Below the pieces are notes generated by a model that worked only from the letters and a program-made list of their open reading frames with translations, did not search any database and was not told the origin of the DNA. The position numbers were made by a program, and so were the translations under genes. This document shows, piece by piece, positions 1-35,338 of a stretch of DNA of 35,338 nt (within the stretch, counting starts at the first letter, position 1; the number at the start of each line of letters is the position of its first letter). Source of the stretch: a virus; the IMG/VR virus record IMGVR_UViG_3300045988_173503, positions 1 through 35,338 of that record. One strand, given 5' to 3'.

Positions 1-55
1 GAACCCATGTTACAGCCGTGAAAGGGCCGTGTCTTAACCGCTTGACCAACGGGCC
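1..55. repeat. Terminal direct repeat, copy 1 (equals nt 1-55 of tRNA-Glu on the minus strand)
   Basis: Read base by base, 1..55 is identical to 35284..35338. The copy is cut off by the window edge, so its true extent is unknown. Confidence 0.95.
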
Positions 56-82
56 GGAATTCCCGACCTGTTGGCCGGAAAA

Positions 83-159
83 TGGTAGCGGAGATTGGAC
101 TTGAACCCATGACCTACCGGGTATGAACCGGTTGCTCTAGCCAGCTGAGCTACTCCGCC
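83..159 (-). tRNA. tRNA-Met (anticodon CAU), 77 nt with encoded CCA
   Basis: The reverse complement folds as a cloverleaf: GGCGGAG/TA/GCTC-AGCTGGCTA-GAGC/A/ACCGG-TTCATAC-CCGGT/AGGTC/ATGGG-TTCAAGT-CCAAT/CTCCGCT/A/CCA. The anticodon loop is TTCATAC. By my folding it has a G1-U72 wobble and a G51-A63 mismatch. I cannot tell elongator Met from lysidine-modified Ile2 by eye. Confidence 0.85.
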
Positions 160-203
160 ATATTCACTCGGACCTTTTGAGTCTCACTCACGAGTGCTTA
201 AAT

Positions 204-232
204 ATTATACCACAAACGAAAGCGTTTGTCAA
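204..232 (-). promoter_or_regulatory. Consensus sigma-A promoter of the tRNA-Met/tRNA-Glu operon
   Basis: The minus strand reads TTGACA (227..232), a 17-nt spacer, then TGgTATAAT (-10 at 204..209, with an extended -10 TG). It sits about 40 nt upstream of the tRNA-Met 5' end. Confidence 0.75.
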
Positions 233-325
233 GGGGTTAGAGCAAAGTTTTTTGTTTTTTTTCGGAATTGTCAGGGATGTACTGAAAACCGGCGGCTGGC
301 GGGCGAAGTTCGTCTGTTTTTGCGC

Positions 326-354
326 TTGAAAAGAGCGCCGGGAAGTGGTATCAT
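326..354 (+). promoter_or_regulatory. Sigma-A-type promoter facing the accessory/early region
   Basis: TTGAAA (326..331), a 17-nt spacer, then TGgTATCAT (-10 at 349..354) with an extended -10 TG. A non-coding leader of about 200 nt follows. Confidence 0.6.
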
Positions 355-562
355 ATATATGTCGATAAATTCAGAATACGCGCCGGACGGAAAACCGCTC
401 GGACGACGTATTATATCGCACAGAGTAGACCATGACGCGTGAAGTGTCCGGCGGACGGGGAGTTGTCGCCGGAACGAAAGAATCCTAAGGATTACTGCGG
501 TGTCAGGGTCGCATCCCGCTGTCGCATACCCGGAGAATTTCCTTAACGGATAACTTCCTTAT

Positions 563-733
563 ATGCTGCCTGTCGGAATGCTGCATATCAAGGTCAAGCG
601 ACTCGAAGAGCGCATGAGCAAGATCGAAGATCCCGCTTTTACCTATTATAACGGTAATATAGGTTCTTGGCAGGAGCTTGCGCGCATTACCGACAAAAGC
701 CCGGCGGTCGATAACCGCCGGACACAGATTTAG
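563..733 (+). CDS. Small hypothetical protein (56 aa; alternative ATG at 578), paralog of 1982..2161
   Basis: This ORF is below the 60-aa cutoff of the ORF track and I translated it by hand: MLPVGMLHIKVKRLEERMSKIEDPAFTYYNGNIGSWQELARITDKSPAVDNRRTQI. The C-terminal two thirds align without gaps to the 1982..2161 product. No clear RBS is visible. Confidence 0.5.
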   Translation: MLPVGMLHIKVKRLEERMSKIEDPAFTYYNGNIGSWQELARITDKSPAVDNRRTQI

Positions 734-780
734 TCTTTCAAGAAGTCTATAATGCACTTTCTCATGTCAAGGAGGTAAGA

Positions 781-969
781 TTGATTAGCTTTGGTGAAGC
801 GCGAATCGTGTTATTGACAATAGCGGTGTCAGCAATTACATCTTCGGTGTGCGCATGGCTCGTCACAAAAAATCAATGCACATATTTTCTTCGCACGGTT
901 GACAAATATGTAGATTGGACTATGGAACGAATTATAGAAATTGTAAGAGGAGGTAGAAAAAATGGATAA
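781..969 (+). CDS. Small membrane protein (62 aa, one predicted TM helix)
   Basis: TTG start, 5 nt after AAGGAGG. Hydrophobic stretch ARIVLLTIAVSAITSSVCAWLV. No recognisable family. Confidence 0.55.
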   Translation: MISFGEARIVLLTIAVSAITSSVCAWLVTKNQCTYFLRTVDKYVDWTMERIIEIVRGGRKNG

Positions 970-1117
970 TCATGAAAAAGAAGTCCTTCGCAAGCAGCTT
1001 GACCTGCTTGCCGAAAAGTCGGTTGTGATCGCCCATCTTGCCGGGCATGAAAGCGATCTTCTAGCATACACGAACATAATGTGCGAGATCGTAAAGCTTC
1101 TCCAGTGGGAATCATAA
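962..1117 (+). CDS. Small hypothetical protein (51 aa)
   Basis: Hand-translated ORF below the track cutoff: MDNHEKEVLRKQLDLLAEKSVVIAHLAGHESDLLAYTNIMCEIVKLLQWES. A GAGGAGG RBS precedes it. Its stop overlaps the next start (TAATG). Confidence 0.5.
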   Translation: MDNHEKEVLRKQLDLLAEKSVVIAHLAGHESDLLAYTNIMCEIVKLLQWES

Positions 1118-1326
1118 TGAACCAGATAGACCAGCACATCGAAGCACAGCTCAAAGCCGCATGGCAAGCAATCTTCGAAGGCAAGAACCAATCGCAGATT
1201 CCCGAAGACAAGCCGTTTGGTCATGACAATCGCTTTCCGGACGAGCCGCACAATCCATGGCACATCCTGATCGGATTCGTCGCCGGGATTGTTGTCGCGG
1301 TAGCCGCGCGGCTGATATTCCAATAA
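1117..1326 (+). CDS. Small membrane protein (69 aa, C-terminal TM helix)
   Basis: Internal ATG of track ORF 1081..1326, coupled to the upstream stop. C-terminal hydrophobic segment ILIGFVAGIVVAVAARLIF. Confidence 0.5.
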   Translation: MNQIDQHIEAQLKAAWQAIFEGKNQSQIPEDKPFGHDNRFPDEPHNPWHILIGFVAGIVVAVAARLIFQ

Positions 1327-1341
1327 AAAGGAGGTGAACCC

Positions 1342-1548
1342 ATGTACGCTATCTTATTACTGTTGATCGCGGCAGGAACGGCGGGATTACCTGCGCCATA
1401 TCTCGTGGCACTGTGCGTAATCTCCGCCGTCTGGCTGATCGGGCGTGAAGTAGATCGAAAACGAGCCCTCAAGTCCCTTCCGTCAGCATTTTCGAAGGCA
1501 CTGCTGGAAGTGATAGAGAAACTTGAAGAGAACGCCTCGAATAAGTGA
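1342..1548 (+). CDS. Small membrane protein (68 aa, two N-terminal TM helices)
   Basis: AGGAGGTG RBS 6 nt upstream of the ATG. Hydrophobic N-terminal half, charged C-terminal tail. Confidence 0.6.
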   Translation: MYAILLLLIAAGTAGLPAPYLVALCVISAVWLIGREVDRKRALKSLPSAFSKALLEVIEKLEENASNK

Positions 1549-1550
1549 CT

Positions 1551-1895
1551 TTACTGCGGAATCCTAGGTAATGCGTCTTGAATCGTTGATGCAAGGTTTA
1601 TTACCGCCGGAGTCACTTCAGCTATAGTCTTCAAGCGGTTGCAGATGTAAGTAATCTTACCGACCGACAAAAAGCCTTCGCCGATGATCTTAGTGATCTC
1701 GGGCGGCAATTTGTTCTCGCCGTCGCAGTAGCATTTCAGCCTTTCATATACCTGCGGCGGCAGCGGCTCGTTCTCGGAATAGACTTTCTTAAGGAGTTCG
1801 AGCTTTTCGAGAGCGAGATCGCACCACTTGAAGTACTGTAGCTCTTCCCAAGTGAAATTTGATGTGTCAGCCCACGTCATAAGAGAATCTTTCAC
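1551..1895 (-). CDS. Hypothetical protein (114 aa), cassette gene 1
   Basis: GTG start preceded by the conserved leader GGAGGTGATTAT and the cassette promoter. No recognisable family. Confidence 0.65.
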   Translation of the reverse strand: MKDSLMTWADTSNFTWEELQYFKWCDLALEKLELLKKVYSENEPLPPQVYERLKCYCDGENKLPPEITKIIGEGFLSVGKITYICNRLKTIAEVTPAVINLASTIQDALPRIPQ

Positions 1896-1981
1896 ATAAT
1901 CACCTCCTCTCCGAGATGATTATACCACAAAAACAAACAAAAATCAAGACGGATTTCCAAAACATTGAAGGAGGTGAGAGA
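1896..1981 (-). promoter_or_regulatory. Promoter-leader cassette, copy 1
   Basis: The minus strand reads TTGATT (1942..1947), a 17-nt spacer, TGgTATAAT (-10 at 1919..1924), then GGAGGTGATTAT-GTG. The plus-strand end carries GAAGGAGGTGAGAGA-ATG for the divergent gene. About 95% identical to copy 2 by hand alignment. Confidence 0.75.
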
Positions 1982-2161
1982 ATGAAGAAAAGCGAGCGAA
2001 TCAAATTGCTTGAAGAAAAGGTCAAGCGGCTCGAACGTCGCGTGAGCGAGATAGAAGACCCTACTTGTACCTACTATAACGGAATTATACGTTCATGGCA
2101 GGAACTTGCGCGCATTACTGATAAAAGCCCGGCGGTCGATAACCGCCGGACACGGAATTAG
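1982..2161 (+). CDS. Small hypothetical coiled-coil protein (59 aa)
   Basis: ATG 6 nt after GGAGGTG: MKKSERIKLLEEKVKRLERRVSEIEDPTCTYYNGIIRSWQELARITDKSPAVDNRRTRN. Paralog of 563..733. The 3' end contains a GC hairpin at 2129..2149. Confidence 0.6.
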   Translation: MKKSERIKLLEEKVKRLERRVSEIEDPTCTYYNGIIRSWQELARITDKSPAVDNRRTRN

Positions 2162-2349
2162 TCTCTCAAGTAATCGATAATGCACTTTCTCATATCATTG
2201 AGTGCATAGACCATCAATCTTGAAAGCTGTGCCATGTCTGCTTCGCAGACTGGGGTTGTACTGCCCTCAGGAAATGTTTCCTGAGCGTGCAGTGCAAACT
2301 CGTTGATAGCCGCATTGAGCTTATTGTTAAGCAAATTAATGTTTTTCAC
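2158..2349 (-). CDS. Hypothetical protein (63 aa), cassette gene 2
   Basis: GTG start behind GGAGGTGATTAT and the copy-2 promoter. Its stop codon overlaps the stop of 1982..2161. Confidence 0.6.
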   Translation of the reverse strand: MKNINLLNNKLNAAINEFALHAQETFPEGSTTPVCEADMAQLSRLMVYALNDMRKCIIDYLRD

Positions 2350-2436
2350 ATAATCACCTCCTCTCCGAGATGATTATATCACAAAAACGAACAAAAATCA
2401 AGACGGATTTCAAAAACTATTGAAGGAGGTGAGAGA
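2350..2436 (-). promoter_or_regulatory. Promoter-leader cassette, copy 2
   Basis: The minus strand reads TTGATT (2396..2401), a 17-nt spacer, TGaTATAAT (-10 at 2373..2378), then GGAGGTGATTAT-GTG. Confidence 0.75.
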
Positions 2437-2652
2437 ATGAAGAAAAAGCCAATAAAGCGTGATTTCTATAAGGAAGGCGCACTGAATGGCGCACGTGCCA
2501 AGAAACAGCAGGAAGTCCGAAAGCTCGCAAAAGAGATCGTTGTTCTTATCGGCGAAAAACATAGCCTCACTCACGAGGAAGCAATGGAAGTGCTTGATCG
2601 GAGCAAGGCTATGCTTAACTACTTCTGCGAGCTTCGACTCGACAGAAGTTAG
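2437..2652 (+). CDS. Hypothetical basic protein (71 aa)
   Basis: ATG after GAAGGAGGTGAGAGA. No recognisable family. Confidence 0.6.
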   Translation: MKKKPIKRDFYKEGALNGARAKKQQEVRKLAKEIVVLIGEKHSLTHEEAMEVLDRSKAMLNYFCELRLDRS

Positions 2653-2841
2653 TTAATTCTGCGAGCCGAAGTCAATGGGGTGGGCGTCGTCGTAAGCATC
2701 AAGAGCAGATTTAGCTCTATCGCGCAACTGGCAGTATCGCGTAGCAAATCCATCAATACTGCCCGCCCCCTTTTCCGTCGCACTAATGCGCAGATACTCA
2801 ATTGCGAGTTCATGCGCTATAGTCTCGTTGTTCGGTTTCAT
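2653..2841 (-). CDS. Hypothetical protein (62 aa), cassette gene 3
   Basis: ATG behind GGAGGTGATTAT and the copy-3 promoter. Its stop abuts the stop of 2437..2652 with no gap. Confidence 0.6.
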   Translation of the reverse strand: MKPNNETIAHELAIEYLRISATEKGAGSIDGFATRYCQLRDRAKSALDAYDDAHPIDFGSQN

Positions 2842-2927
2842 ATAATCACCTCCTCTCTGAGATGATTATACCATAAAATGGACGAAATGTCAAGAATCGT
2901 TCCATGAAAGGAAAGGAGGTGAGAGGG
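2842..2927 (-). promoter_or_regulatory. Promoter-leader cassette, copy 3
   Basis: The minus strand reads TTGACA (2888..2893), a 17-nt spacer, TGgTATAAT (-10 at 2865..2870), then GGAGGTGATTAT-ATG. Confidence 0.75.
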
Positions 2928-3161
2928 ATGAACGAGGTTGCGACAGTAAATCACATTCCAGAAAATCCGAGAGAGCGGTTTCTCCGAAATGTGATGGAAA
3001 TGAATAGTCAAAGCACGGCTTCTTTGATAAAACTCAAAAAGTCCCGGAAACTCGGTATCCGGCTTATACTGTCTGATCAGTTTTCGGCGGATGCGACCGA
3101 TTCCGAAAGATGCTGTAAAAGGTTCGTCAAGCGATTAAAGTCGTTGACCAGTTCGATGTAA
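2928..3161 (+). CDS. Hypothetical protein (77 aa)
   Basis: ATG after GGAAAGGAGGTGAGAGGG. The last 85 nt overlap the convergent gene 3077..3442, so the true 3' extent and the coding status of the tail are uncertain. Confidence 0.45.
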   Translation: MNEVATVNHIPENPRERFLRNVMEMNSQSTASLIKLKKSRKLGIRLILSDQFSADATDSERCCKRFVKRLKSLTSSM

Positions 3162-3442
3162 TCGCTGTTGTCTTGATCGACGTCATGCAGTTCACACATA
3201 TTTATGTTGTGCGAATAAAAGCGGCGCGAATAATTCAGAGCAAACAGTATAGCCGTCCAATCCGATTTGTCTATGATATCGGCATTTTTAGAGTGCATTC
3301 GGTCACGGAACTGTTTCAGATGAGCAAGTTTTTTTGCAACTTTAGGTTGGCTCGTTCCTGATTTGTTGTCAACTATGGTCAGGGTTATGGCTTTATAGAG
3401 TGCTTGGGTATCTTCGGCACTCAAATTCAGATTCACGTTCAT
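3077..3442 (-). CDS. Hypothetical protein (121 aa), cassette gene 4
   Basis: Internal ATG of track ORF 3077..3523, directly behind GGAGGTGATTAT and the copy-4 promoter (MNVNLNLSAEDTQALYK...). No recognisable family. Confidence 0.65.
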   Translation of the reverse strand: MNVNLNLSAEDTQALYKAITLTIVDNKSGTSQPKVAKKLAHLKQFRDRMHSKNADIIDKSDWTAILFALNYSRRFYSHNINMCELHDVDQDNSDYIELVNDFNRLTNLLQHLSESVASAEN

Positions 3443-3503
3443 ATAATCACCTCCCTTCGAGTTGATTATACCACAAAAATAAACGAATGTCAAGGAGACC
3501 ACC
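3443..3503 (-). promoter_or_regulatory. Promoter-leader cassette, copy 4 (shorter)
   Basis: The minus strand reads TTGACA (3488..3493), a 17-nt spacer, TGgTATAAT (-10 at 3465..3470), then GGGAGGTGATTAT-ATG. It borders the first gene of the long plus-strand operon. Confidence 0.75.
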
Positions 3504-3782
3504 ATGAAAGCAGAAGAAATCAAAACCGACCTCGGAAATTTCGTCCGGGTAAAATGCGGGGTCGTCTGCTACAGGGACCCGGACGGGACGCCGAACGGAA
3601 AGGTTGTGGATCTTTACCGGGAGATACCGGAGAAGGCATACGACCCTGAGCGAGGGCTCACGACCGACGAGAAGAACGCCGCGAACTACGCCGCCGACTA
3701 TATCTTCGCGAAACTGCTCGAGGAAAACGGCGGCATGGCGGATTACATACGCCGCTTCGGCGGCAAACGCAGTAGAAAATAA
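3504..3782 (+). CDS. Hypothetical protein (92 aa), first gene of the early operon
   Basis: GGAG RBS and a clean ORF. No recognisable family. Confidence 0.6.
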   Translation: MKAEEIKTDLGNFVRVKCGVVCYRDPDGTPNGKVVDLYREIPEKAYDPERGLTTDEKNAANYAADYIFAKLLEENGGMADYIRRFGGKRSRK

Positions 3783-3795
3783 GGAGGAAAACACA

Positions 3796-3954
3796 ATGGA
3801 CAACAGACAGAAAGTAAACGCGATTCTTCGTGACGAGGCTTTTTCTAAGCTCTCCAAGATAGAGCGCAGGCTCGTCGCAAGCTATATCGAGGGCGTAATC
3901 GCCTGTGCGGAGCTTCGCGAACAGAAGCCCGAGAAGGAGGACAAGCCGGCATGA
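3796..3954 (+). CDS. Small hypothetical protein (52 aa)
   Basis: Internal ATG of track ORF 3604..3954, preceded by AAGGAGG. Its stop overlaps the next start (ATGA). Confidence 0.5.
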   Translation: MDNRQKVNAILRDEAFSKLSKIERRLVASYIEGVIACAELREQKPEKEDKPA

Positions 3955-4160
3955 AGCAGACAAAGTTCAAAGCCCTGCTCGCGGAGCGGAACATCAGTAT
4001 AAGCCGCCTCGCGAAGGACGCCGGAATCAGCCGGGCGATGCTTTATCGGAAGATCGAGGGCGTCTGCGACTTCACCTACACCGAAATCTACAAGATCTGC
4101 ATGACGCTCGGACTTTCCGATCCGCTCGCGGTATTCATCCCAAAGGAGAAAAGAAAATGA
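3951..4160 (+). CDS. XRE/Cro-like helix-turn-helix DNA-binding protein (69 aa)
   Basis: HTH-like segment NISISRLAKDAGISRAMLYRKIEG. Small size and early-operon position fit a Cro-type regulator. Confidence 0.6.
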   Translation: MKQTKFKALLAERNISISRLAKDAGISRAMLYRKIEGVCDFTYTEIYKICMTLGLSDPLAVFIPKEKRK

Positions 4161-4483
4161 ACAAGAGAATCAAAAAAAAACACTTCGTCCGCTTCGCGGA
4201 AGCCGTCATGTTTTATCGCGAAGAGGGGCTCGAATGGTGCTCATACCAGAAAGCGAAGCCGGTCGGCGGTAAAGCCGCGAAAAAATGCTGGCAGTACGCT
4301 CTCGAGTGCGGACACGAAAACGCGCTCGACGAAAAGCCGATCTTTCGACCGGAGCGGAAATACGTCTTCGCCGTCACGCAGACAGACGACTTCCGGCGTC
4401 TCGTCGAGCCGATCCGGGTAACCCCGATCGACGCCGACAAGCCCGCGCACAGAGACACGCCGCGTCCGACACGGAACAGATAA
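4157..4483 (+). CDS. Hypothetical protein (108 aa)
   Basis: ATG within track ORF 3905..4483, after AAGGAGAA. The ATGA overlaps the upstream stop. Confidence 0.55.
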   Translation: MNKRIKKKHFVRFAEAVMFYREEGLEWCSYQKAKPVGGKAAKKCWQYALECGHENALDEKPIFRPERKYVFAVTQTDDFRRLVEPIRVTPIDADKPAHRDTPRPTRNR

Positions 4484-4496
4484 GGAGATCAGAACG

Positions 4497-4733
4497 ATGA
4501 CAGAACTCGAAATGCAAAGCAAACTCATCCGCCAGCAGCAGTCCCAGATCAACGACCTGCGGCAGTGCAACAAAATGCTCGAGAGGGCAAATCAGCTTCT
4601 CGCCGACGCCCTCGCCGCCGTGCTCGAGCGTGAGGGACGCGACAGAGTCTTCGTCCCGCGAGAGGGTGAGAAGGCTGAGTTCCGCGCCGAAGAAACCCTC
4701 GACGGCGGCGGGATTCTGCTGTGCAGGGCATGA
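4497..4733 (+). CDS. Hypothetical coiled-coil protein (78 aa)
   Basis: AAGGAGA RBS. N-terminal heptad-like sequence. Confidence 0.55.
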   Translation: MTELEMQSKLIRQQQSQINDLRQCNKMLERANQLLADALAAVLEREGRDRVFVPREGEKAEFRAEETLDGGGILLCRA

Positions 4734-4754
4734 GAAATGTCCGGCATAAAAATA

Positions 4755-4829
4755 GCGTCCGGGCAGTACACCACTACCACCCGGACGCAAAGGAGATCTC
4801 CTCTGACAAGGACACCATATACAGTATAT
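4755..4829 (+). promoter_or_regulatory. Intergenic regulatory region with three palindromes and a weak promoter-like element
   Basis: 8-bp GC stem CGTCCGGG/CCCGGACG (4755..4786). 12-bp palindrome AGGAGATCTCCT (4790..4801). CTGACA (4802..4807), 16 nt, then TATATC (4824..4829), overlapping the 13-nt palindrome ATATACAGTATAT (4816..4828). Confidence 0.35.
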
Positions 4830-4879
4830 CACAAATCAATGGCAAAGTCAACAGCCTGAAAATAAAAAGTGAGGACAAC

Positions 4880-5146
4880 ATGAAACCACACGAAACTCTC
4901 CCCGAGGACATCGAAAGAAGAGTCGGGCGGTCGCTCTGGAACATCCGCGCGAGCGGCGAAGGGCTCGACGACGCGACGGTCGTCCGCACCTACAAGCGAG
5001 CATACGCGAAGTACCGCTCCGCCGTGATGGGCGACGACACCTACCGACCGGAAATCGGAATGCCGACCGGCTACATAACCGAGACTTTTATTAAAAAAGA
5101 GGCGTGGAGACGCTACGCCGAAGAAAGGAAGATTGAGCTTGACTGA
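4880..5146 (+). CDS. Hypothetical protein (88 aa)
   Basis: Internal ATG of track ORF 4721..5146, after GTGAGGA. The sequence upstream of it looks non-coding. Confidence 0.55.
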   Translation: MKPHETLPEDIERRVGRSLWNIRASGEGLDDATVVRTYKRAYAKYRSAVMGDDTYRPEIGMPTGYITETFIKKEAWRRYAEERKIELD

Positions 5147-5366
5147 GACGACCGCAACCGGAAACAGATGGAGGAACTACGGCTGTATCGGCGGGAGTGT
5201 CTATCGTATCGCTCTGACCGACCGCTACGGATGGCCGCTCGTATACTTCAAGGGCTACTACAACCCCAAACGGCAAGCCTACCGTCTGTATCCGGAAAAG
5301 GTCGTCGTACCCGGCGCGTGGGACATAACCCCGCGCTGGCTCTACTGGCACGAGTTTGCAAGGTAA
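5133..5366 (+). CDS. Hypothetical protein (77 aa)
   Basis: TTG start overlapping the upstream gene end. Trp/Tyr-rich sequence. The start is uncertain. Confidence 0.4.
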   Translation: MSLTETTATGNRWRNYGCIGGSVYRIALTDRYGWPLVYFKGYYNPKRQAYRLYPEKVVVPGAWDITPRWLYWHEFAR

Positions 5367-5373
5367 CACAGAC

Positions 5374-5709
5374 ATGATTCAGAAGCACTTCGTCCCGATC
5401 ACCACACGGCGACCGTGGACATATGAAGAAAAACAGCTCGCAAGAACACTCCGGGAAAAAGGCATGTCCTGCGCGAAGATCGCGGAAACGCTCGACCGCA
5501 CCGAGAACGCCGTGCGGATATTCTTCGGCGAGCGATCAATCAGATACAAGCTCCCGGACAGAAAAGCCGCCGGTCCGTGGATGGATAAAGACCAGATCAT
5601 CCGCGAATGGAGACAGGCGAAAGACCCGGACGCCCAGATGCTGATTCTCGCGGAGCTGAATGACGTCCCGCTCCCGTACATCAAGAAGATCATAAGGGAA
5701 GGTACATAA
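5374..5709 (+). CDS. Myb/SANT-like HTH DNA-binding protein (111 aa)
   Basis: Segment RRPWTYEEKQLARTLREKGMSCAKIAETLDRTENAVR resembles SANT/Myb-type or sigma region-4-type HTH domains common in phage early regions. Confidence 0.5.
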   Translation: MIQKHFVPITTRRPWTYEEKQLARTLREKGMSCAKIAETLDRTENAVRIFFGERSIRYKLPDRKAAGPWMDKDQIIREWRQAKDPDAQMLILAELNDVPLPYIKKIIREGT

Positions 5710-8804: not shown

Positions 8805-9841
8805 TTGATTTAATGGGAAACGAAATCATAGAAACCGAGGCGAAAGAAATCCTCCCGGACGCCGGAAGGGCTCACCTCGTACACGGTGAAATCCTCGCCG
8901 GGAAAAAGCAGGTGGCAATCGGACTCTACGAGTTCGCTGCCGGGCTCAAAACGATGAGAGACGAACGGCTCTATCAGGCGCTCGGGTGCGCCGGATTTGA
9001 CGAGTACTGCGAAAAGCTCGCGAAAGTAAATGTCTCGCAAGCCTACAAGTACATCAAAGTCTACGAAGAACTCGGAGCGGGCGCTTTACAGTCAGCTGGG
9101 GGAATGGGTATCGAGAAACTTTTCCTCGTCACGCAGCTCCCGCCCGCCGAGAGGAGCGACGCCATCGCCGAGCCGGAAACCATCGAGGGCATGAGCGTGA
9201 AGGAACTCAAAGACTTTGTCGCGAAGGCAAGACAGCAGGGCGAACAGCTCTCGCTTATACAGGGTGAACTCGACGAATTGAAACTCGAAAAGCAGGACGC
9301 CGAAGCCGAACGGGACGACGAAAAAGCAAAGCTCGAGAGGGAGCTCGAACATCTCCGCGAAAAGCTCAGAGTGACCGAGGACACGCAGAAAGAGACCATA
9401 AAAGCCGCCATCAACGCCGAAAAGAACAAATACGCCGAAGAAGCCGAGACTCTGGCGCGGCTCAAAATGCAGCTCGAAATCGAAGAAGCCCGGAAAGCCG
9501 GCGAAGCGGACGGCAAAAAGGCGGCGGAAAAGACCATCGACAAAGCGAAACAGGCTCTCGAAAAGGAAAAGAAAGCTCTCGAGGACGAAAAGAAAAAAGC
9601 CGAAGCCGAACTTGACGCGCTGAAAAAGGAAATCGGCGGCAGAGACGAACAGATCGCCGGGCTTGAAAAGAAGCTCCGGACCGCGGACAGCGCGACGGCA
9701 GGATTCAAGGTCTGTCTCGAAGGTCTCGTCGGAGCCTACGACCGATGCCGGACGTATCTTGAAAAAATCGAAGACACGAACGAAAGAACAAAATGTGAAA
9801 CTGCCCTCGGACGGGCTATAGAAAGGCTTGGAACAAGATGA
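8801..9841 (+). CDS. Putative DNA-binding protein with a long Glu/Lys/Ala-rich coiled coil (346 aa)
   Basis: The N-terminal ~100 aa resemble phage HTH-type domains (...YQALGCAGFDEYCEKLAKVNVSQAYKYIKVYEELG). Residues ~150-300 are heptad-rich. TTG start (alternative ATG at 8813). Confidence 0.4.
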   Translation: MIDLMGNEIIETEAKEILPDAGRAHLVHGEILAGKKQVAIGLYEFAAGLKTMRDERLYQALGCAGFDEYCEKLAKVNVSQAYKYIKVYEELGAGALQSAGGMGIEKLFLVTQLPPAERSDAIAEPETIEGMSVKELKDFVAKARQQGEQLSLIQGELDELKLEKQDAEAERDDEKAKLERELEHLREKLRVTEDTQKETIKAAINAEKNKYAEEAETLARLKMQLEIEEARKAGEADGKKAAEKTIDKAKQALEKEKKALEDEKKKAEAELDALKKEIGGRDEQIAGLEKKLRTADSATAGFKVCLEGLVGAYDRCRTYLEKIEDTNERTKCETALGRAIERLGTR

Positions 9842-10826: not shown

Positions 10827-10913
10827 CAAGCGGCCGAGAGACAACTCAAAAAAAGAAGAGAGCGAACTCACAAAAAAGGCGCTCGAGGAGCTGCTGAAGC
10901 AGATGGAGACAAC

Positions 10914-11402
10914 ATGATGAAATGGGACGAAGAAAAGCTCCGCACCTACTCGGAAATGCGGAAATCCGGCGCGACGGCGGAAGAGATCAGCGCTGTTCTC
11001 GGATGCGACAGAAGTGCCGTCTACAGAAAGACGAAAGAACTCAACCGCAAAAACAAGGGCGGCGTCACTGCCGGAACAGCCGCAGCCGCGGACACCGCGA
11101 AGCTCGCGGTGGCAAGCACGGATGACACGATCACAGCGACCGAGTCTCCGAAGCCCGAGCCGCTCGTCACCCTGAAACCCGAATACAAAAAGGTGCCCGC
11201 GAACAGCGAACGTATCGGATGCTATGTCAAAGAAGCGCTCGCCGAAGCGGATCACCTCGGAATTCAACCCGACGAGATCAACGTCCGGCTCTGTGAAACG
11301 GACGGCGGAGAAATCAGCCTCTACGGGACGGACAAAAACGGACGACGCGTCATTATAACCTACAACGTCCTCGGAGAGAAGACGCCGGTAATGCTCCGCT
11401 GA
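10914..11402 (+). CDS. HTH-domain protein (162 aa), possible regulator
   Basis: The N-terminus WDEEKLRTYSEMRKSGATAEEISAVLGCDRSAVYRKTKEL looks like a sigma region-4/terminase-small-type HTH. The C-terminal domain is unknown. Confidence 0.45.
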   Translation: MMKWDEEKLRTYSEMRKSGATAEEISAVLGCDRSAVYRKTKELNRKNKGGVTAGTAAAADTAKLAVASTDDTITATESPKPEPLVTLKPEYKKVPANSERIGCYVKEALAEADHLGIQPDEINVRLCETDGGEISLYGTDKNGRRVIITYNVLGEKTPVMLR

Positions 11403-11683
11403 ACAGAATCAGAAAAGAGGAAGATCAAATATGTGGTCTTCCTCTGTGTCACAACTTTTTACCTATTATATAATACAGAACCTTACACCATATAGAGACA
11501 TCGGGGCGCGAGCCCCGAATCAACCTTGTAATGGGTATTAATAACTCCGCACAAGCTGCCCAAAACAGAGAAAACATTTCCCGACACGACATCGCGCACA
11601 CGCGTGTGCGAACCATTTCCAAAACCGACACAGCTCGGCTGATCGAATTAAATCCGTGACCACGAAAGAGAGGTAGATTCAAA
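11403..11683 (+). other. 281-bp non-coding region upstream of rep with structured elements
   Basis: 9-bp hairpin 11416..11445 (terminator-like, T-run at 11456..11460). TATAAT at 11469..11474. GC hairpin TCGGGGC-GCGA-GCCCCGA (11501..11518, GNRA loop). Perfect 16-bp palindrome CGCACACGCGTGTGCG (11595..11610). Confidence 0.6.
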
Positions 11684-12670
11684 ATGATCTTCGTCCGCGA
11701 ACAGCAAATATATACTCGCCGGGTCAGAGGCGAAGAGCAGAAGGAAGTCCACCTCTCCGTCATCACCGAGGGGCAGAAGAAATACTACGGTTCCCACCGG
11801 TCGAGAAAGAAAGTCAAGGTGTCCTCACCAAAACAGAAGGCTCTCAACGACAAGCGGTCGAGAATCTACTTTGAGATGCTCGCGAGCACCAACTTCGGGC
11901 GCGGGGACTATCTCGTGACGAATACATATGGCGACGAACACCTTCCAGGCTCCGCTGACGACGGGGACGACAATGTCAAGCGGTTTCTCCGCCGTCTTTC
12001 CGTGATCTACAAAAAAGCGGGTGTACCCTTCCGGTACATTTTCACAACCTCGTACTCCTCCGGGCGTAACGGCGGGGCTCCCGTCCGTATGCACCATCAC
12101 ATTCTTCTCTCCGGCGGCGTCGACCGCGACACTATCGAGGACGCCTGGAGAGCAAAGTCAGACAAGCCCGGCAGACTCGGAGACAAGCTCGGGTTTGCCA
12201 ACGTAAAAAAATTACAGCCGGACGAGAGCGGGATTTCCGCCGCCCTCGTGTACTTTGTCAAACAAGCAAGAGAGGGTATTCGCCGCCGCTGGCATGCGAG
12301 TATCGGACTCAAAAAGCCCCTCGCCGCTTACCCGAACGACGACTCCTATGATTTCCGTGATCTCAAAACCATCCGCGACCGCGGATCCGACGCTCCCGAC
12401 AGATCATGGTGGGAAAAGCGCTATCCCGGATGGACACTCGCCGGACTCGGAGCCGTGACCATCAGCGAAAGCGAAATCTCCGGAACCTCCGTCCGCGTCA
12501 AGCTAAGACGTCTCGACAACTCGCCGCCGCGAAAAAAAGAGTTATACACAAGAAAGCCAGAGTTATCCACAAGCAAAGCGAGGTTATCAACAAAGCTGTC
12601 AACAGAGTTATCAACAGGTCGCAAGCCTGTCGCAACAAAATCAACATCAAGTCGCAAAAAGAAGGAGTGA
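11684..12670 (+). CDS. HUH-superfamily rolling-circle replication initiator (Rep), 328 aa
   Basis: Three ordered motifs: YLVTNTY (motif I-like), VRMHHHILLSGG (HUH) and ALVYFVKQA (catalytic Tyr, YxxK). AGAGAGG RBS. The C-terminal 45 aa are low-complexity and encoded by the repeat array. Confidence 0.65.
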   Translation: MIFVREQQIYTRRVRGEEQKEVHLSVITEGQKKYYGSHRSRKKVKVSSPKQKALNDKRSRIYFEMLASTNFGRGDYLVTNTYGDEHLPGSADDGDDNVKRFLRRLSVIYKKAGVPFRYIFTTSYSSGRNGGAPVRMHHHILLSGGVDRDTIEDAWRAKSDKPGRLGDKLGFANVKKLQPDESGISAALVYFVKQAREGIRRRWHASIGLKKPLAAYPNDDSYDFRDLKTIRDRGSDAPDRSWWEKRYPGWTLAGLGAVTISESEISGTSVRVKLRRLDNSPPRKKELYTRKPELSTSKARLSTKLSTELSTGRKPVATKSTSSRKKKE

Positions 12671-12688
12671 TCACATGAGTTATCCACA
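12542..12688 (+). repeat. Array of same-orientation DnaA-box-like 9-mers / 21-bp iterons (candidate origin)
   Basis: TTATACACA 12542..12550, TTATCCACA 12563..12571, TTATCAACA 12584..12592, TTATCAACA 12608..12616, TTATCCACA 12680..12688. Two weaker copies (CTGTCAACA 12596..12604, AAATCAACA 12638..12646). The first three are spaced exactly 21 bp apart within the repeated unit RAGTTATNCACAAG. Confidence 0.7.
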
Positions 12689-13103
12689 AGCAGGAGGATT
12701 TCTGCCGACCGAAGACAGCGAACAAGAGGCGCTTTTTGAGTGGGCGGCAATGATGAGCCGGGTGCAGCCGTGTCTCCGACTCCTGCACCACATACCAAAC
12801 GGCGGAAAGAGAGATATCGGCACCGCGCGGGCGCTCCGGAGACGGGGCGTCAAGCCCGGTGTGCCTGATCTCTGTCTGCCGCACCCCGCCGGACGGTTTC
12901 ACGGACTGTACATAGAGCTCAAAAAAGCGCATGGCGGCAGGACAAGCGACTATCAGGATGAATGGATCAAAGCCCTCGAAGGCGAGGGCTACTTTGTCGC
13001 GGTCTGCCACGGGTGGAGAAACGCCGCCGCGAAGATCGAAGAGTACCTGAAGCTCGAGAGCTCGGGCGTAGCCGAGAAAGGAGAAAACGATGAAAACGCG
13101 TGA
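12675..13103 (+). CDS. VRR-NUC domain nuclease
   Basis: Pattern ...HHIPNGGKRD...GVKPGVPDLCLP...GLYIELKKAHGGRTSDYQDEWIKALEGEGYFVAVCHGW matches the PD-(D/E)xK VRR-NUC signature (GxPD ... ELK ... Q). Confidence 0.8.
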   Translation: MSYPQAGGFLPTEDSEQEALFEWAAMMSRVQPCLRLLHHIPNGGKRDIGTARALRRRGVKPGVPDLCLPHPAGRFHGLYIELKKAHGGRTSDYQDEWIKALEGEGYFVAVCHGWRNAAAKIEEYLKLESSGVAEKGENDENA

Positions 13104-13386
13104 TTTCAACTACCTTCCCGCAGTCCGACTCGGGAGGCGCAAGCAGGGGCTGATTTACTACCTCAGCCACAATTACCACAATCTCCCGCCGAAAAAGCGG
13201 AAGATCATCGACGCGTATATAACCTCCATCGCCGGAGAACACGCGAAAGCACTGAAGCGTTACATGACGACCGAGGACTCGGCGGCTATTATCTGCATGG
13301 AGGAATTCATCGGCTCGCCAAACACACTCTACTCGCTCCAGAGGACATACTACGAGCTCTTCCCCATCGGGCGGATTCTCGGCTGA
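13090..13386 (+). CDS. Hypothetical protein (98 aa); possible late-gene regulator by position only
   Basis: AAAGGAGAA RBS. Last gene before a strong terminator and the packaging genes, where late activators often sit. No motif recognised. Confidence 0.3.
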   Translation: MKTRDFNYLPAVRLGRRKQGLIYYLSHNYHNLPPKKRKIIDAYITSIAGEHAKALKRYMTTEDSAAIICMEEFIGSPNTLYSLQRTYYELFPIGRILG

Positions 13387-13393
13387 CACTCAA

Positions 13394-13418
13394 AGCACGC
13401 AAAACGCGTGCTTTTTTT
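13394..13418 (+). terminator. Rho-independent terminator closing the early/replication operon
   Basis: Stem AGCACGC/GCGTGCT (13394..13400 with 13406..13412), loop AAAAC, followed by seven T residues. Confidence 0.8.
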
Positions 13419-13456
13419 GTTGCCCGCGAAAGTTAGTAGTAATGGAGGTATGAACT

Positions 13457-30896: not shown

Positions 30897-32971
30897 TTAA
30901 AATAATTCCTGACCGTGAAGGAGTCATCACACAATGGGATTTGAACCGGAAAGTCTTGATTTCCGGAATTGATAACGATGAGGCGGGGATAAAAGTGCAT
31001 TTTGCATCGCCCAATGACGATCACAATGCCTATGTTGTTTCGCCTGTAATAAACAACAATATTGTATCGGCGACAATACCCAATATTCTTCTGACGATAC
31101 CGGGGCGGATATATGTGTACGTTTATACATCATATACGCAGGATAAAGCAATCGTGGCTGTGGCGCCGCGCGAGAAGCCTGATGACTACGTGTACACGGA
31201 AACCGAAAAATTCGCGCTCGAGCAGTGGGAAAAAGAGGCTACCGAAAGACTTGAAGGCAGATATGATAAAGCGGTGCAGGAGATTGACGAGCGCTATGCC
31301 GGGCTAAGAGATGATGCAATAACAGCAGCATCAGCAGCGGCATCTGCGCAGACTAGTGCCGCTGCCGCCGACTTATCCGCAACCAGAGCTGAAGCCGCCG
31401 AAACAAACGCAAAAGAAAACGCCAAAGCCATATCTGAAGTAGGCGATCAAGTCACAGCCAATGCAAAAGCGGTGTCTGACGCGCTGATTACAGTGGAAAC
31501 TGCCAAATCTGACGCGCTTGCTGCGAAATCAGCCGCCGAAGCCGCAAATGAAAAAGCCGCATCATCGGCTAATGCCGCAAAGGAATCGCAAACCGCAGCT
31601 GAAACTGCCGAAAGTAACGCGGCTGAAGCTGCTAAAGCTGCGCAACAGGCAGAAACAAGTGCAACCGAAGCAAAGGATAATGCGATCACAGCAAAGGATG
31701 ATGCGGAGAACGCCAAGGACATCGCTGAAACCGCCAAAGATGATGCCATAGCAGCCAAAAACGCGGCTGAACAAGCTAAAACAGCCGCTGAAACCGCGGC
31801 TGAAAACGTGCCGATAATCGATGACACGCTTGCCGCGGGCAACCGCACGTGGAGTTCGCTAAACATCGTTGAAAAACTGTGCCCGCCACTTACAGGCAGC
31901 GGAAATCCGGTGGTGGTGAGTGACTGTATCAAGGGTTATCCGATGAAGATCACAGCATCGTGGGAACCCACACAAGCAGGTAGTGGCGACCCCAGCCCGG
32001 AGAATATCCGGGCGATAAGCGGACGAGAAAGTATAGCTTTTGATCGGTGCGGTGCAAACCTGCTGGATGTGCCGAAGACACTCCAGATAACTGGCGTGCT
32101 CACGATCTCCAAAAAGCTGCCACCGGGGCCATACAAACTATCTTGGGGAGAGGCAACAAAAGGAGGAAAAAAACCGATTGCTTTTGTCTGTAGTACGCGT
32201 AAAACCGCGCCAACGGCGATTAATTTCACCAGCGCAAATAGTGATGTATCTTTCACCTTGTCAGAATCGATTGAAACAATCTATATATACTCAAATGGCT
32301 ATGACTTTTCGGGTAGCGCGGGCATCACATCGGTGGTATGCGATCTTATGCTGTCCGCTGACAAGTCTGCCACCTACGCTCCCTACTCCGGCACGACACG
32401 CAATCTTACGCTGCCCGAGACCATCTACGGCGGCAGTGTAGACGCGGCGACCGGCGAGGGGATGATGACGTGGAGCCTGATCACGCTGGACGGAACGGAA
32501 GACGGCTGGTACAAATACGGAGGCGCAGATACTGACGCGAAGACGAGCTGTTTCACTATCGGCATATCCGACAAAGCGTACGGCTTTGGATCGTCCATTT
32601 GCAATTTATTTTGTAACACCAATGATGATTCCTCGTATACCAGCGATCGCATGAAGGCATATAATTACACCGATCACCCCAACTTGCCGAACGTATATAT
32701 GAATTTTGGTGTCGACAGAACCGTAACAGTTGACGACTGGAAATCCTACCTCGCCGCCCAGTATGCCGCCGGTAAGCCAGTGCAGGTCGCCTATAAGCTC
32801 GCCGATCCAGTGCCAATCACCGCAGCCGGAGGATCGCCGTTATATCAGCTTGATGGTATAAATACGGTTATTTCAGACGCAGATACATTGACCGTCAACG
32901 GCAGGGCTGATCCGATAAAAGTCATGGAGTCACAGCGCCAAGCAATAATTTCGTTAGGAGGTAATATTTGA
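30893..32971 (+). CDS. Long tail fibre protein (692 aa, XkdV-like position)
   Basis: ATG overlapping the upstream TGA. An N-terminal attachment domain, an Ala-rich coiled coil of about 180 aa (AKxxAExA repeats, roughly 31300..31800), and a C-terminal globular domain. Confidence 0.7.
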   Translation: MIKIIPDREGVITQWDLNRKVLISGIDNDEAGIKVHFASPNDDHNAYVVSPVINNNIVSATIPNILLTIPGRIYVYVYTSYTQDKAIVAVAPREKPDDYVYTETEKFALEQWEKEATERLEGRYDKAVQEIDERYAGLRDDAITAASAAASAQTSAAAADLSATRAEAAETNAKENAKAISEVGDQVTANAKAVSDALITVETAKSDALAAKSAAEAANEKAASSANAAKESQTAAETAESNAAEAAKAAQQAETSATEAKDNAITAKDDAENAKDIAETAKDDAIAAKNAAEQAKTAAETAAENVPIIDDTLAAGNRTWSSLNIVEKLCPPLTGSGNPVVVSDCIKGYPMKITASWEPTQAGSGDPSPENIRAISGRESIAFDRCGANLLDVPKTLQITGVLTISKKLPPGPYKLSWGEATKGGKKPIAFVCSTRKTAPTAINFTSANSDVSFTLSESIETIYIYSNGYDFSGSAGITSVVCDLMLSADKSATYAPYSGTTRNLTLPETIYGGSVDAATGEGMMTWSLITLDGTEDGWYKYGGADTDAKTSCFTIGISDKAYGFGSSICNLFCNTNDDSSYTSDRMKAYNYTDHPNLPNVYMNFGVDRTVTVDDWKSYLAAQYAAGKPVQVAYKLADPVPITAAGGSPLYQLDGINTVISDADTLTVNGRADPIKVMESQRQAIISLGGNI

Positions 32972-35263: not shown

Positions 35264-35338
35264 TGGTGACCCGTACGGGAATCGAACCCATGTTACAGCC
35301 GTGAAAGGGCCGTGTCTTAACCGCTTGACCAACGGGCC
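35264..35338 (-). tRNA. tRNA-Glu (anticodon UUC), 75 nt with encoded CCA
   Basis: Reverse complement: GGCCCGT/TG/GTC-AAGCGGTTAA-GAC/A/CGGCC-CTTTCAC-GGCTG/TAAC/ATGGG-TTCGATT-CCCGT/ACGGGTC/A/CCA. Closely resembles Firmicutes tRNA-Glu as I remember it. Confidence 0.9.
35284..35338. repeat. Terminal direct repeat, copy 2
   Basis: Identical to 1..55. Confidence 0.95.

Follow-up and report, generated by a model that had tools for sequence, protein, structure and literature searches.

A lineage-specific array of DnaA-box-like repeats in the rep/VRR-NUC operon of a tailed phage: a possible non-origin cluster of host DnaA sites

Why would a phage carry an array of DnaA-box-like repeats inside the coding sequence of its own replication initiator? 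The viral contig IMGVR_UViG_3300045988_173503 from IMG/VR (35,338 nt; we call this whole stretch the window) bears such an array of 9-mers across the 3' end of its rep gene and the start of the adjoining gene for a VRR-NUC nuclease. The original prediction, made from the letters of the window, had read the array foremost as a candidate origin lying within the initiator gene, in the manner of P2 and phiX174, with its repeat units as possible iterons, and had offered the recruitment or titration of host DnaA as a second option. Comparison with related loci points to that second option as the best-supported reading, and we see about an even chance that the array is a lineage-specific, accessory cluster of predicted host-DnaA sites that does not serve as an origin. 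The features on which the argument turns are, along the window:

11684-12670, + strand: rep, 328 aa, ending ...KPELSTSKARLSTKLSTELSTGRKPVATKSTSSRKKKE, with the motifs RMHHHILL and VYFVKQ
12515-12667, + strand: variable tail of Rep (residues ~278-328), encoded by the array
12542-12550, + strand: DnaA box 1, TTATACACA, perfect to TTATNCACA, encoding L-Y-T of the Rep tail
12563-12571, + strand: DnaA box 2, TTATCCACA, the perfect consensus, 21 bp after box 1, encoding L-S-T
12584-12592, + strand: DnaA box 3, TTATCAACA, one mismatch, 21 bp after box 2
12596-12604, + strand: degenerate copy, CTGTCAACA, belonging to an extra 12-nt unit
12608-12616, + strand: DnaA box 4, TTATCAACA
12618-12657, + strand: three direct GTCGCAA heptamers (at 12618, 12629 and 12651) in blocks nearly invariant among array-bearing relatives
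12675-13103, + strand: VRR-NUC nuclease gene (PF08774, E 1.1e-10), with the ribosome-binding site GAAGGAG at 12661-12667
12680-12688, + strand: DnaA box 5, TTATCCACA, over VRR-NUC codons 2-4 (M-S-Y-P-Q), in a frame that differs from that of boxes 1-4

The five same-orientation 9-mers that the original prediction had picked out are all present, on the + strand and within 147 bp, and three of the five match the relaxed consensus TTATNCACA exactly. Their starts are 21, 21, 24 and 72 bp apart, so that the 21-bp phasing described at the outset holds for boxes 1-3 but does not extend to boxes 4 and 5. Two weaker copies had been noted as well; both exist (CTGTCAACA at 12596 and AAATCAACA at 12638), but they are missing or degraded in relatives. 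Tandem Repeats Finder resolves the array into 2.7 copies of a 21-bp unit at 12538-12593 and 2.9 copies of a 12-bp unit at 12583-12617. Further tandem repeats with a period of 21-22 nt lie in coding regions of the replication and tail modules (9554-9595, 10836-10878 and 31694-31746).

The boxes are concentrated here and nowhere else in the window. A scan of its full length for 9-mers within one mismatch of TTATCCACA returned 9 matches, compared with 4.25 +/- 1.77 in shuffled sequences, and none of 100 shuffles reached 9; five of the nine fall inside the 147 bp, whereas the remaining four lie dispersed, no denser than expected by chance. A comparable density elsewhere, which the original prediction had named as grounds for abandoning it, was thus not seen. 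A sharper measure is the index A of Ishikawa, for which the affinities of four boxes in succession are added up and divided by the mean distance between them. A > 0.3 set apart all eight regions of B. subtilis stably bound by DnaA in vivo, and no others (Ishikawa et al. 2007, PMC2533591). For 12542-12616, A is 0.571, read against a threshold that derives from B. subtilis and may not be that of the host; elsewhere in the window A does not exceed 0.009, and its maximum over 200 shuffles was 0.085. With at least four close boxes within one mismatch of TTATNCACA, the array qualifies as a cluster. Among relatives that carry it, A is 0.8 in L001, L002 and L207 and 0.32 in L259, and across 634 kb of loci of the Rep family values above 0.3 occur in the array-bearing clade only.

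Upon comparing the window with these relatives, namely L001 (=L007), L002 (=L008), L207 and L259/L260, whose Rep proteins are 86-96% identical to its own, we found the boxes frozen in DNA that otherwise changes. In a four-way alignment of the window, L001, L002 and L207, to which the column counts refer, 0 of 39 box columns vary versus 21 of 102 in the rest of the array (p = 0.001). In the region of boxes 1-3 the spacers vary at 16 of 28 positions (57%) and the boxes at 0 of 18 (p = 6e-5); the flanking Rep core, with 16 of 98 columns variable, changes more slowly than these spacers. What is conserved of each 21-bp unit is a core of 9-10 nt, GTTATMMACA (G-TTATMMACA-R); the remaining 11-12 nt account for the 57%. 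Of the third codon positions, 1 of 12 within boxes is variable, compared with 32 of 84 for the core of Rep (p = 0.053). TTA makes up 3.0% of leucine codons (14 of 468, in 18 phage genes), yet it encodes all four in-frame leucines of the boxes. Box 1 is identical in the window, L001, L002, L207 and L259. Box 5, the same 9-mer in another gene and another frame, is unchanged in all array-bearing relatives. In these relatives box 4 follows box 3 by 12 bp, leaving a 3-bp gap, compared with 24 bp in the window. The Rep tail (...KPELSTSKARLSTKLSTELST...) reads as the original prediction had described it, and the view that the DNA signal rather than this peptide is conserved stands: frozen boxes, variable spacers, the rare TTA codon and the out-of-frame box 5 together indicate that the boxes are selected at the DNA level and not for the peptide.

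A tandem repeat made by slippage, either without any function in the DNA or kept for the L-S-T peptide motif of the Rep tail, could produce a similar appearance. Such an origin would fit the 21- and 12-nt tandem periods, the copy number of the 12-nt unit (1, 2 or 3 across 15 cluster members), the L[SY]T motif that does not vary in these 15 members, and the fact that the sole change seen in a box is synonymous and preserves L-S-T. Neutral decay, however, would be even along the repeat, yet the boxes are frozen and the spacers are not, and a constraint on the peptide cannot explain a codon used at 3%, the suppressed third positions or the out-of-frame 9-mer in VRR-NUC. Nor does the tail itself look constrained. 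Residues 280-328 are predicted to be disordered (pLDDT < 50), the tail is variable or absent in other family members, including a relative with 73% Rep identity that lacks it, and it is truncated in L207 with the boxes kept. There, an insertion that shortens the Rep tail leaves all five boxes intact. The insertion (L207 ~379-470) is a near-perfect, MITE-like hairpin of ~90 nt between heptamers 2 and 3 (dG -25 kcal/mol, z = -7.7). We therefore regard a slippage-made or peptide-driven repeat as very improbable.

The array has a narrow distribution. It is confined to one tight clade, with Rep at least about 86% identical, and a metagenome scan with Rep added one array-bearing fragment, L207. The closest relative without the array, L004, has a Rep 73% identical to that of the window and the same order of rep, VRR-NUC, 98-aa open reading frame (gp98) and terminase genes; its Rep stops directly after the conserved core, with neither tail nor boxes. 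L003-L006 contain no box cluster, and neither do ~120 other loci of the Rep family, taken from viral contigs and genomes. Within the clade, the array travels with the rep/VRR-NUC operon, not with the packaging genes. The DNA common to all array-bearing loci corresponds to ~11322-13380 of the window and comprises the origin region, rep, the array, VRR-NUC and gp98. L259 has the array beside unrelated upstream genes. L002 combines it with a P22-type gp3 (GP3_package) and Terminase_3 packaging module and lacks the HNH gene, and L256/L257 share the late module of the window from 13456 on (96.5% nucleotide identity) but have a different Rep and no array. The replication module on the left and the packaging and structural module on the right recombine independently among L002, L256/L257 and L259, and the mosaic breakpoint, at ~13380-13456, coincides with a terminator at 13392-13414. 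The L001 contig ends within VRR-NUC (5146-5169, window ~12840) in the Illumina adapter AGATCGGAAGAGCACACGTCTGAAC, probably an artifact of untrimmed reads rather than a terminus.

These module swaps bear on whether the array, which lies ~1.3 kb upstream of terS, might be a packaging element (pac or cos) or a site of terminase recognition. Terminase subunits are indeed the commonest neighbors of dense box arrays on other viral contigs (33 arrays among the matches listed, see below). But L256/L257 have a near-identical terS (97-99%) and late module with no array, and in L002 the array is combined with another packaging system. The comparison of L002, L256/L257 and L259 thus rules out a packaging signal, to which we assign a next to negligible probability.

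Is the array, then, the origin at which Rep acts? Several lines of evidence suggest that Rep is a putative rolling-circle initiator of the HUH class. It matches phrog_3584, 'replication initiation protein' (E 6.7e-55). Against PF23343 (REP_ORF2-G2P) it scores 26.2 bits, below the cutoff of 27.8, which related members exceed. In the family alignment R135, H137, H138, H139, Y190 and Q194 are invariant, forming RxHHH and Yxx(K/R)Q motifs. A structural model (mean pLDDT 62) gave weak fold matches to the Rep nuclease domains of AAV, geminiviruses and Vientovirus (E about 0.01-0.1); the Rep profile had no match among PDB sequences. Isolated phages of Faecalibacterium, Clostridium perfringens, Latilactobacillus and Butyrivibrio encode homologues with ~30% identity that bear the annotation of replication initiator, and closer ones lie in prophage-like regions of genomes of Oscillospiraceae and other Clostridia. 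Across this family, the conserved DNA element lies upstream of rep and not within it:

11501-11518, + strand: GC-rich hairpin upstream of rep, whose stem sequence covaries across the Rep family
11524-11547, + strand: family-invariant motif, CCTTGTAATGGGTATTAATAACTC in the window and GGGCTTGTAATGGGTATTA in most relatives, a candidate site for nicking or binding by Rep

In the window the element (11501-11547) sits ~150 bp upstream of rep, directly after a 75%-AT 40-mer at 11457-11496. Across the family it precedes rep by 170-330 nt and, co-oriented with the gene, consists of a hairpin followed 3-6 nt later by GGGCTTGTAATGGGTATTA. A hairpin of 5-10 bp is present upstream in 17 of 19 lineages, with differing stem sequences, and the exact 13-mer GTAATGGGTATTA, upstream of rep and co-oriented with it, is present in ~60 of the 80 viral loci and in ~29 of 47 loci from genomes. 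The element can be placed at ~2875-2925 in L004, ~2935-2985 in L005, ~2925-2965 in L006, ~3850-3895 in L003 and ~628-665 in L256, whose distant Rep belongs to the same Pfam family and whose hairpin is followed by the variant GGGCTTGTATATAATATTAAC. A hairpin followed by an invariant motif containing CTTG has the look of a rolling-circle double-strand origin (PMC5714925). The motif also partly resembles the origin of phiX174 (CTTG...TATTAATAAC), although its ATAAC part varies among relatives; we verified the phiX174 origin, CAACTTGATATTAATAAC, at 4299-4328, inside gene A. The hairpin and CTTGTAATGGGTATTA element upstream of rep is thus most likely the site at which Rep starts rolling-circle replication.

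This arrangement contradicts the proposal of a primary origin inside the initiator gene, of the P2 or phiX174 kind, with the 21-bp units as iterons. The array does sit within rep, and the phiX174 origin does sit in gene A. A cognate origin should, however, be conserved with its initiator family, and the array is missing from ~120 Rep-family loci, which share the upstream hairpin and motif instead. As an HUH-type double-strand origin, the array has neither a hairpin nor a nick-like motif; both a hairpin and a conserved motif are found at 11501-11547. A single-strand origin or hairpin in the array was likewise rejected, as no single-strand structure was detected there (z = +1.1). Just 9-10 nt of each 21-bp unit are kept, which makes classical iterons unlikely: the repeats are not conserved over their full length, and Rep appears to be of the HUH and not the iteron-binding class. 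On these comparative grounds the array is not the origin used by Rep, and we hold the reading as a primary origin to be exceedingly doubtful.

A more restricted replicative role would be that of a DnaA-dependent auxiliary origin or helicase-loading platform (through DnaD/DnaB in Firmicutes), acting in early theta replication or in lagging-strand priming ~1 kb past the Rep nick. The number, orientation and spacing of the boxes are oriC-like, strand displacement from the putative nick would proceed toward the array, a short way downstream, and the phage encodes a single-stranded DNA-binding protein (SSB) but no recognizable helicase, primase or loader. What an oriC-type origin would further contain is missing. 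There is no AT-rich unwinding element beside the array, which is itself 58% AT, with no adjacent 40-mer reaching 70% (the 75% stretch lies away, at 11457-11496). Reading the sequence by eye, we saw no run of DnaA-trio-like triplets near the boxes on either strand, and the array shows no single-strand structure. Relatives that share the Rep family, the replication module and its synteny do without it. We consider helicase loading decidedly unlikely.

If the array is not for Rep to initiate on, a phage-encoded protein could still bind it: Rep, VRR-NUC, gp98 or another protein might use it as an accessory bind locus or regulatory operator, with the likeness to DnaA boxes coincidental. Rolling-circle origins can have a 'bind' locus apart from the nick site (PMC5714925), the array is strictly tied to one group of rep alleles, and the GTCGCAA heptamers beside the boxes hint at a second ligand. 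Against such a protein stands the match itself. Of 262,144 possible 9-mers, only ~100 come within one mismatch of TTATNCACA, which makes five matches with oriC-like spacing improbable for an unrelated operator. In addition, the array is ~1 kb from the conserved Rep element, and no DnaA-like or strong sequence-specific DNA-binding domain was found in the open reading frames of the replication module. Rep, VRR-NUC and gp98, the only phage proteins constantly linked to the array, work without it in relatives such as L004 and L005, which favors a host ligand. A phage-protein site is possible but unlikely in our estimate.

We are thus led back to host DnaA. The best-supported reading is that the array was recently acquired, has been selectively maintained and is overprinted on permissive coding DNA; DnaA as its ligand, and the effect of binding, we infer from the sequence. 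Host DnaA would bind boxes 1, 2 and 5, which fit the strict consensus, and would spread cooperatively to the weaker TTATCAACA boxes; the arrangement (co-oriented, spaced 21, 21 and 12(24) bp) is like that in oriC and in non-origin DnaA-box clusters. Because no unwinding element adjoins the array, the resulting DnaA complex should not open the DNA. Rather, the array would behave as the non-origin clusters of chromosomes do and form a sink that takes up more DnaA as phage copy number rises, while Rep would start rolling-circle replication at the upstream hairpin element. Alternatively or in addition, DnaA bound there, midway in the rep/VRR-NUC/gp98 operon, might form a roadblock or act as a regulator. 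We would rank a sink and/or a roadblock first among the options, a helicase-loading platform second, sites for a phage protein third and a neutral or peptide-driven repeat last.

Several points weigh against a cluster of DnaA sites. To our knowledge, DnaA has no role in rolling-circle replication, and the non-origin clusters that we know of are intergenic, not coding. In two of the five boxes, position 6 is A instead of C, and their affinity may differ accordingly. Substitution counts are small, since the relatives compared are few and closely similar, and the synonymous-site test is borderline. In L259/L260, box 3 is TTGTCAACA, a synonymous TTA-to-TTG change and the only one seen in any box; box 3 may thus be dispensable or partly constrained by the peptide. 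DnaA also offers no account of the conserved GTCGCAA heptamers (the first of which is GTCGTAA in L259), so that a second ligand is possible. Finally, DnaA is absent as a term from a review of rolling-circle replication (PMC5714925).

The surroundings of the array are those of a tailed phage of gut bacteria with nearly all genes on the + strand. It encodes SSB, a PcfJ-like protein, DUF6378, Rep, VRR-NUC, HNH, a Terminase_4 small subunit and a large terminase, besides structural genes, a GH25 lysin and a holin. No integrase, repressor or DnaA-like DNA-binding protein was recognized among the open reading frames at 1-5400 and in the replication module. Further features are:

83-159, - strand: tRNA-Met, in tandem with tRNA-Glu
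11446-11474, + strand: promoter-like site, GTGTCA-17-TATAAT, overlapping the 40-mer at 11457-11496, which at 75% AT is the region's most AT-rich
13392-13414, + strand: intrinsic-terminator-like hairpin and T run, closing the operon of rep, VRR-NUC and gp98
35264-35338, - strand: tRNA-Glu, in tandem with tRNA-Met

The order rep, VRR-NUC, 98-aa open reading frame is kept in relatives. We found no sigma-70-like promoter for VRR-NUC inside the array, the sole good site being that at 11446-11474, and no known RNA family at its gathering threshold across the rep 5' region. Against GenBank phages, 11400-13400 gave a single, irrelevant 172-nt match. The contig ends overlap exactly over 55 nt (1-55 = 35284-35338); because this overlap equals a k of 55 and lies in the 5' part of tRNA-Glu, a circular assembly fits better than att sites. 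Far from the array, a tetrahydrofolate (THF) riboswitch (RF01831) is predicted at 419-523 on the + strand, with 80.8 bits against a gathering score of 36. It lies in a low-GC region (1-3500), with only short unannotated open reading frames downstream (563-733 and 781-969). For a phage, carrying a riboswitch would be out of the ordinary.

Arrays of this kind are not peculiar to the window. A scan of IMG/VR viral contigs for two boxes 21 bp apart returned at least 120 loci (L087-L206), and 33 dense arrays, with 5-12 boxes within 300 bp, are among the matches listed. The 21/21/12 spacing and pairs with a 3-bp gap recur in perfect-box arrays on unrelated contigs, for example L195 and L193. Among the matches listed, other arrays of near-perfect boxes show 11-, 12-, 21- and 22-bp spacing and lie in genuine phage contexts, mostly intergenic and often in divergent regions; examples are L193 3902-3985, L163 3796-3938, L097 3518-3648, L116 284-432 and L145 5497-5602. 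The commonest PHROG families among 107 open reading frames flanking the listed arrays are the small and large terminase subunits, followed by endolysin and RusA. Because dense arrays are frequent among the listed contigs, they seem to be common and understudied. Searching the literature on phage DnaA-box titration and prophage clusters, we found no direct precedent beyond a preprint on phage T5; a paper on Smp131 was set aside, as its DnaA boxes concern the host origin. Nor did we find, in the literature, a description of a DnaA-box cluster on an HUH rolling-circle module or within coding DNA. The upstream hairpin and GGGCTTGTAATGGGTATTA element also appears to be uncharacterized so far in phages and prophages of Clostridia; it offers a concrete candidate origin, open to testing, for a large and as yet uncharacterized Rep family, found in prophages of Oscillospiraceae and other Clostridia.

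If DnaA occupies the array, this would be a clean natural case of a phage overprinting a landing pad for a host factor on coding DNA, and it would link the host initiator to a rolling-circle replicon, outside current models. The case is tractable, with a clade-specific gain, a variable number of units and linkage to a module, and synonymous recoding would remove the boxes and leave the proteins untouched. A bolder and rather unlikely conjecture is that DnaA-box arrays are a widespread, essentially unstudied phage cis element that taps the host initiator. Here, the array might pre-assemble DnaA (with DnaD/DnaB in Firmicutes) on duplex DNA ~1 kb past the Rep nick so that the fork gains helicase and primase, or the array, amplified with the phage, might deplete DnaA until host initiation stops, a timer coupled to replication. 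In either variant, if true, DnaA would serve a rolling-circle replicon, a setting in which it is not known to act. What phage DnaA-box arrays do in general, whether as DnaA sinks, in entry or tethering, or in regulation, merits systematic study.

How does the array compare with known systems? Like phiX174 gene A, P2 gene A, lambda O and the lactococcal and SaPI iterons internal to rep, it consists of repeats within the coding sequence of an initiator. There, the initiator has its cognate site in the internal element, and the two are conserved together, whereas the array is clade-specific and the element that looks cognate lies upstream of rep. DnaA boxes also assist the origins of plasmids and phage-plasmids such as P1 oriR, pSC101, F and RK2. 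There, as in the window, a mobile element has consensus boxes near its own initiator gene through which it uses host DnaA. In those origins, however, the boxes are accompanied by iterons for a winged-helix Rep and by an AT-rich region; the array goes with a putative HUH nickase, has neither iterons nor an unwinding element, and is missing from relatives with the same module.

Phage T5 carries, in its first-step-transfer region, the TTATCAACA variant and pairs of boxes 3 bp apart (bioRxiv 10.1101/866236). A non-replicative role, stopping injection, has been proposed for them as a hypothesis only (same preprint). The likeness lies in phage-borne boxes of the consensus and TTATCAACA types that are conserved among relatives and are not considered the phage origin. 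The boxes of T5-like phages, however, lie within inverted repeats of a large untranslated terminal repeat, and those of the array are repeated directly, within coding sequence of the rep operon.

Chromosomes are already known to bear clusters of DnaA boxes outside oriC; one of these clusters, E. coli datA, needs an IHF-type site. The array differs from such chromosomal clusters in being phage-borne, in lying within two coding sequences and in being known here from sequence alone. In the remaining respects it resembles the non-origin clusters of B. subtilis (Ishikawa et al. 2007) and datA: at least four close boxes within one mismatch of TTATNCACA, A > 0.3 and no adjoining unwinding element, an arrangement expected to hold DnaA rather than to fire replication.

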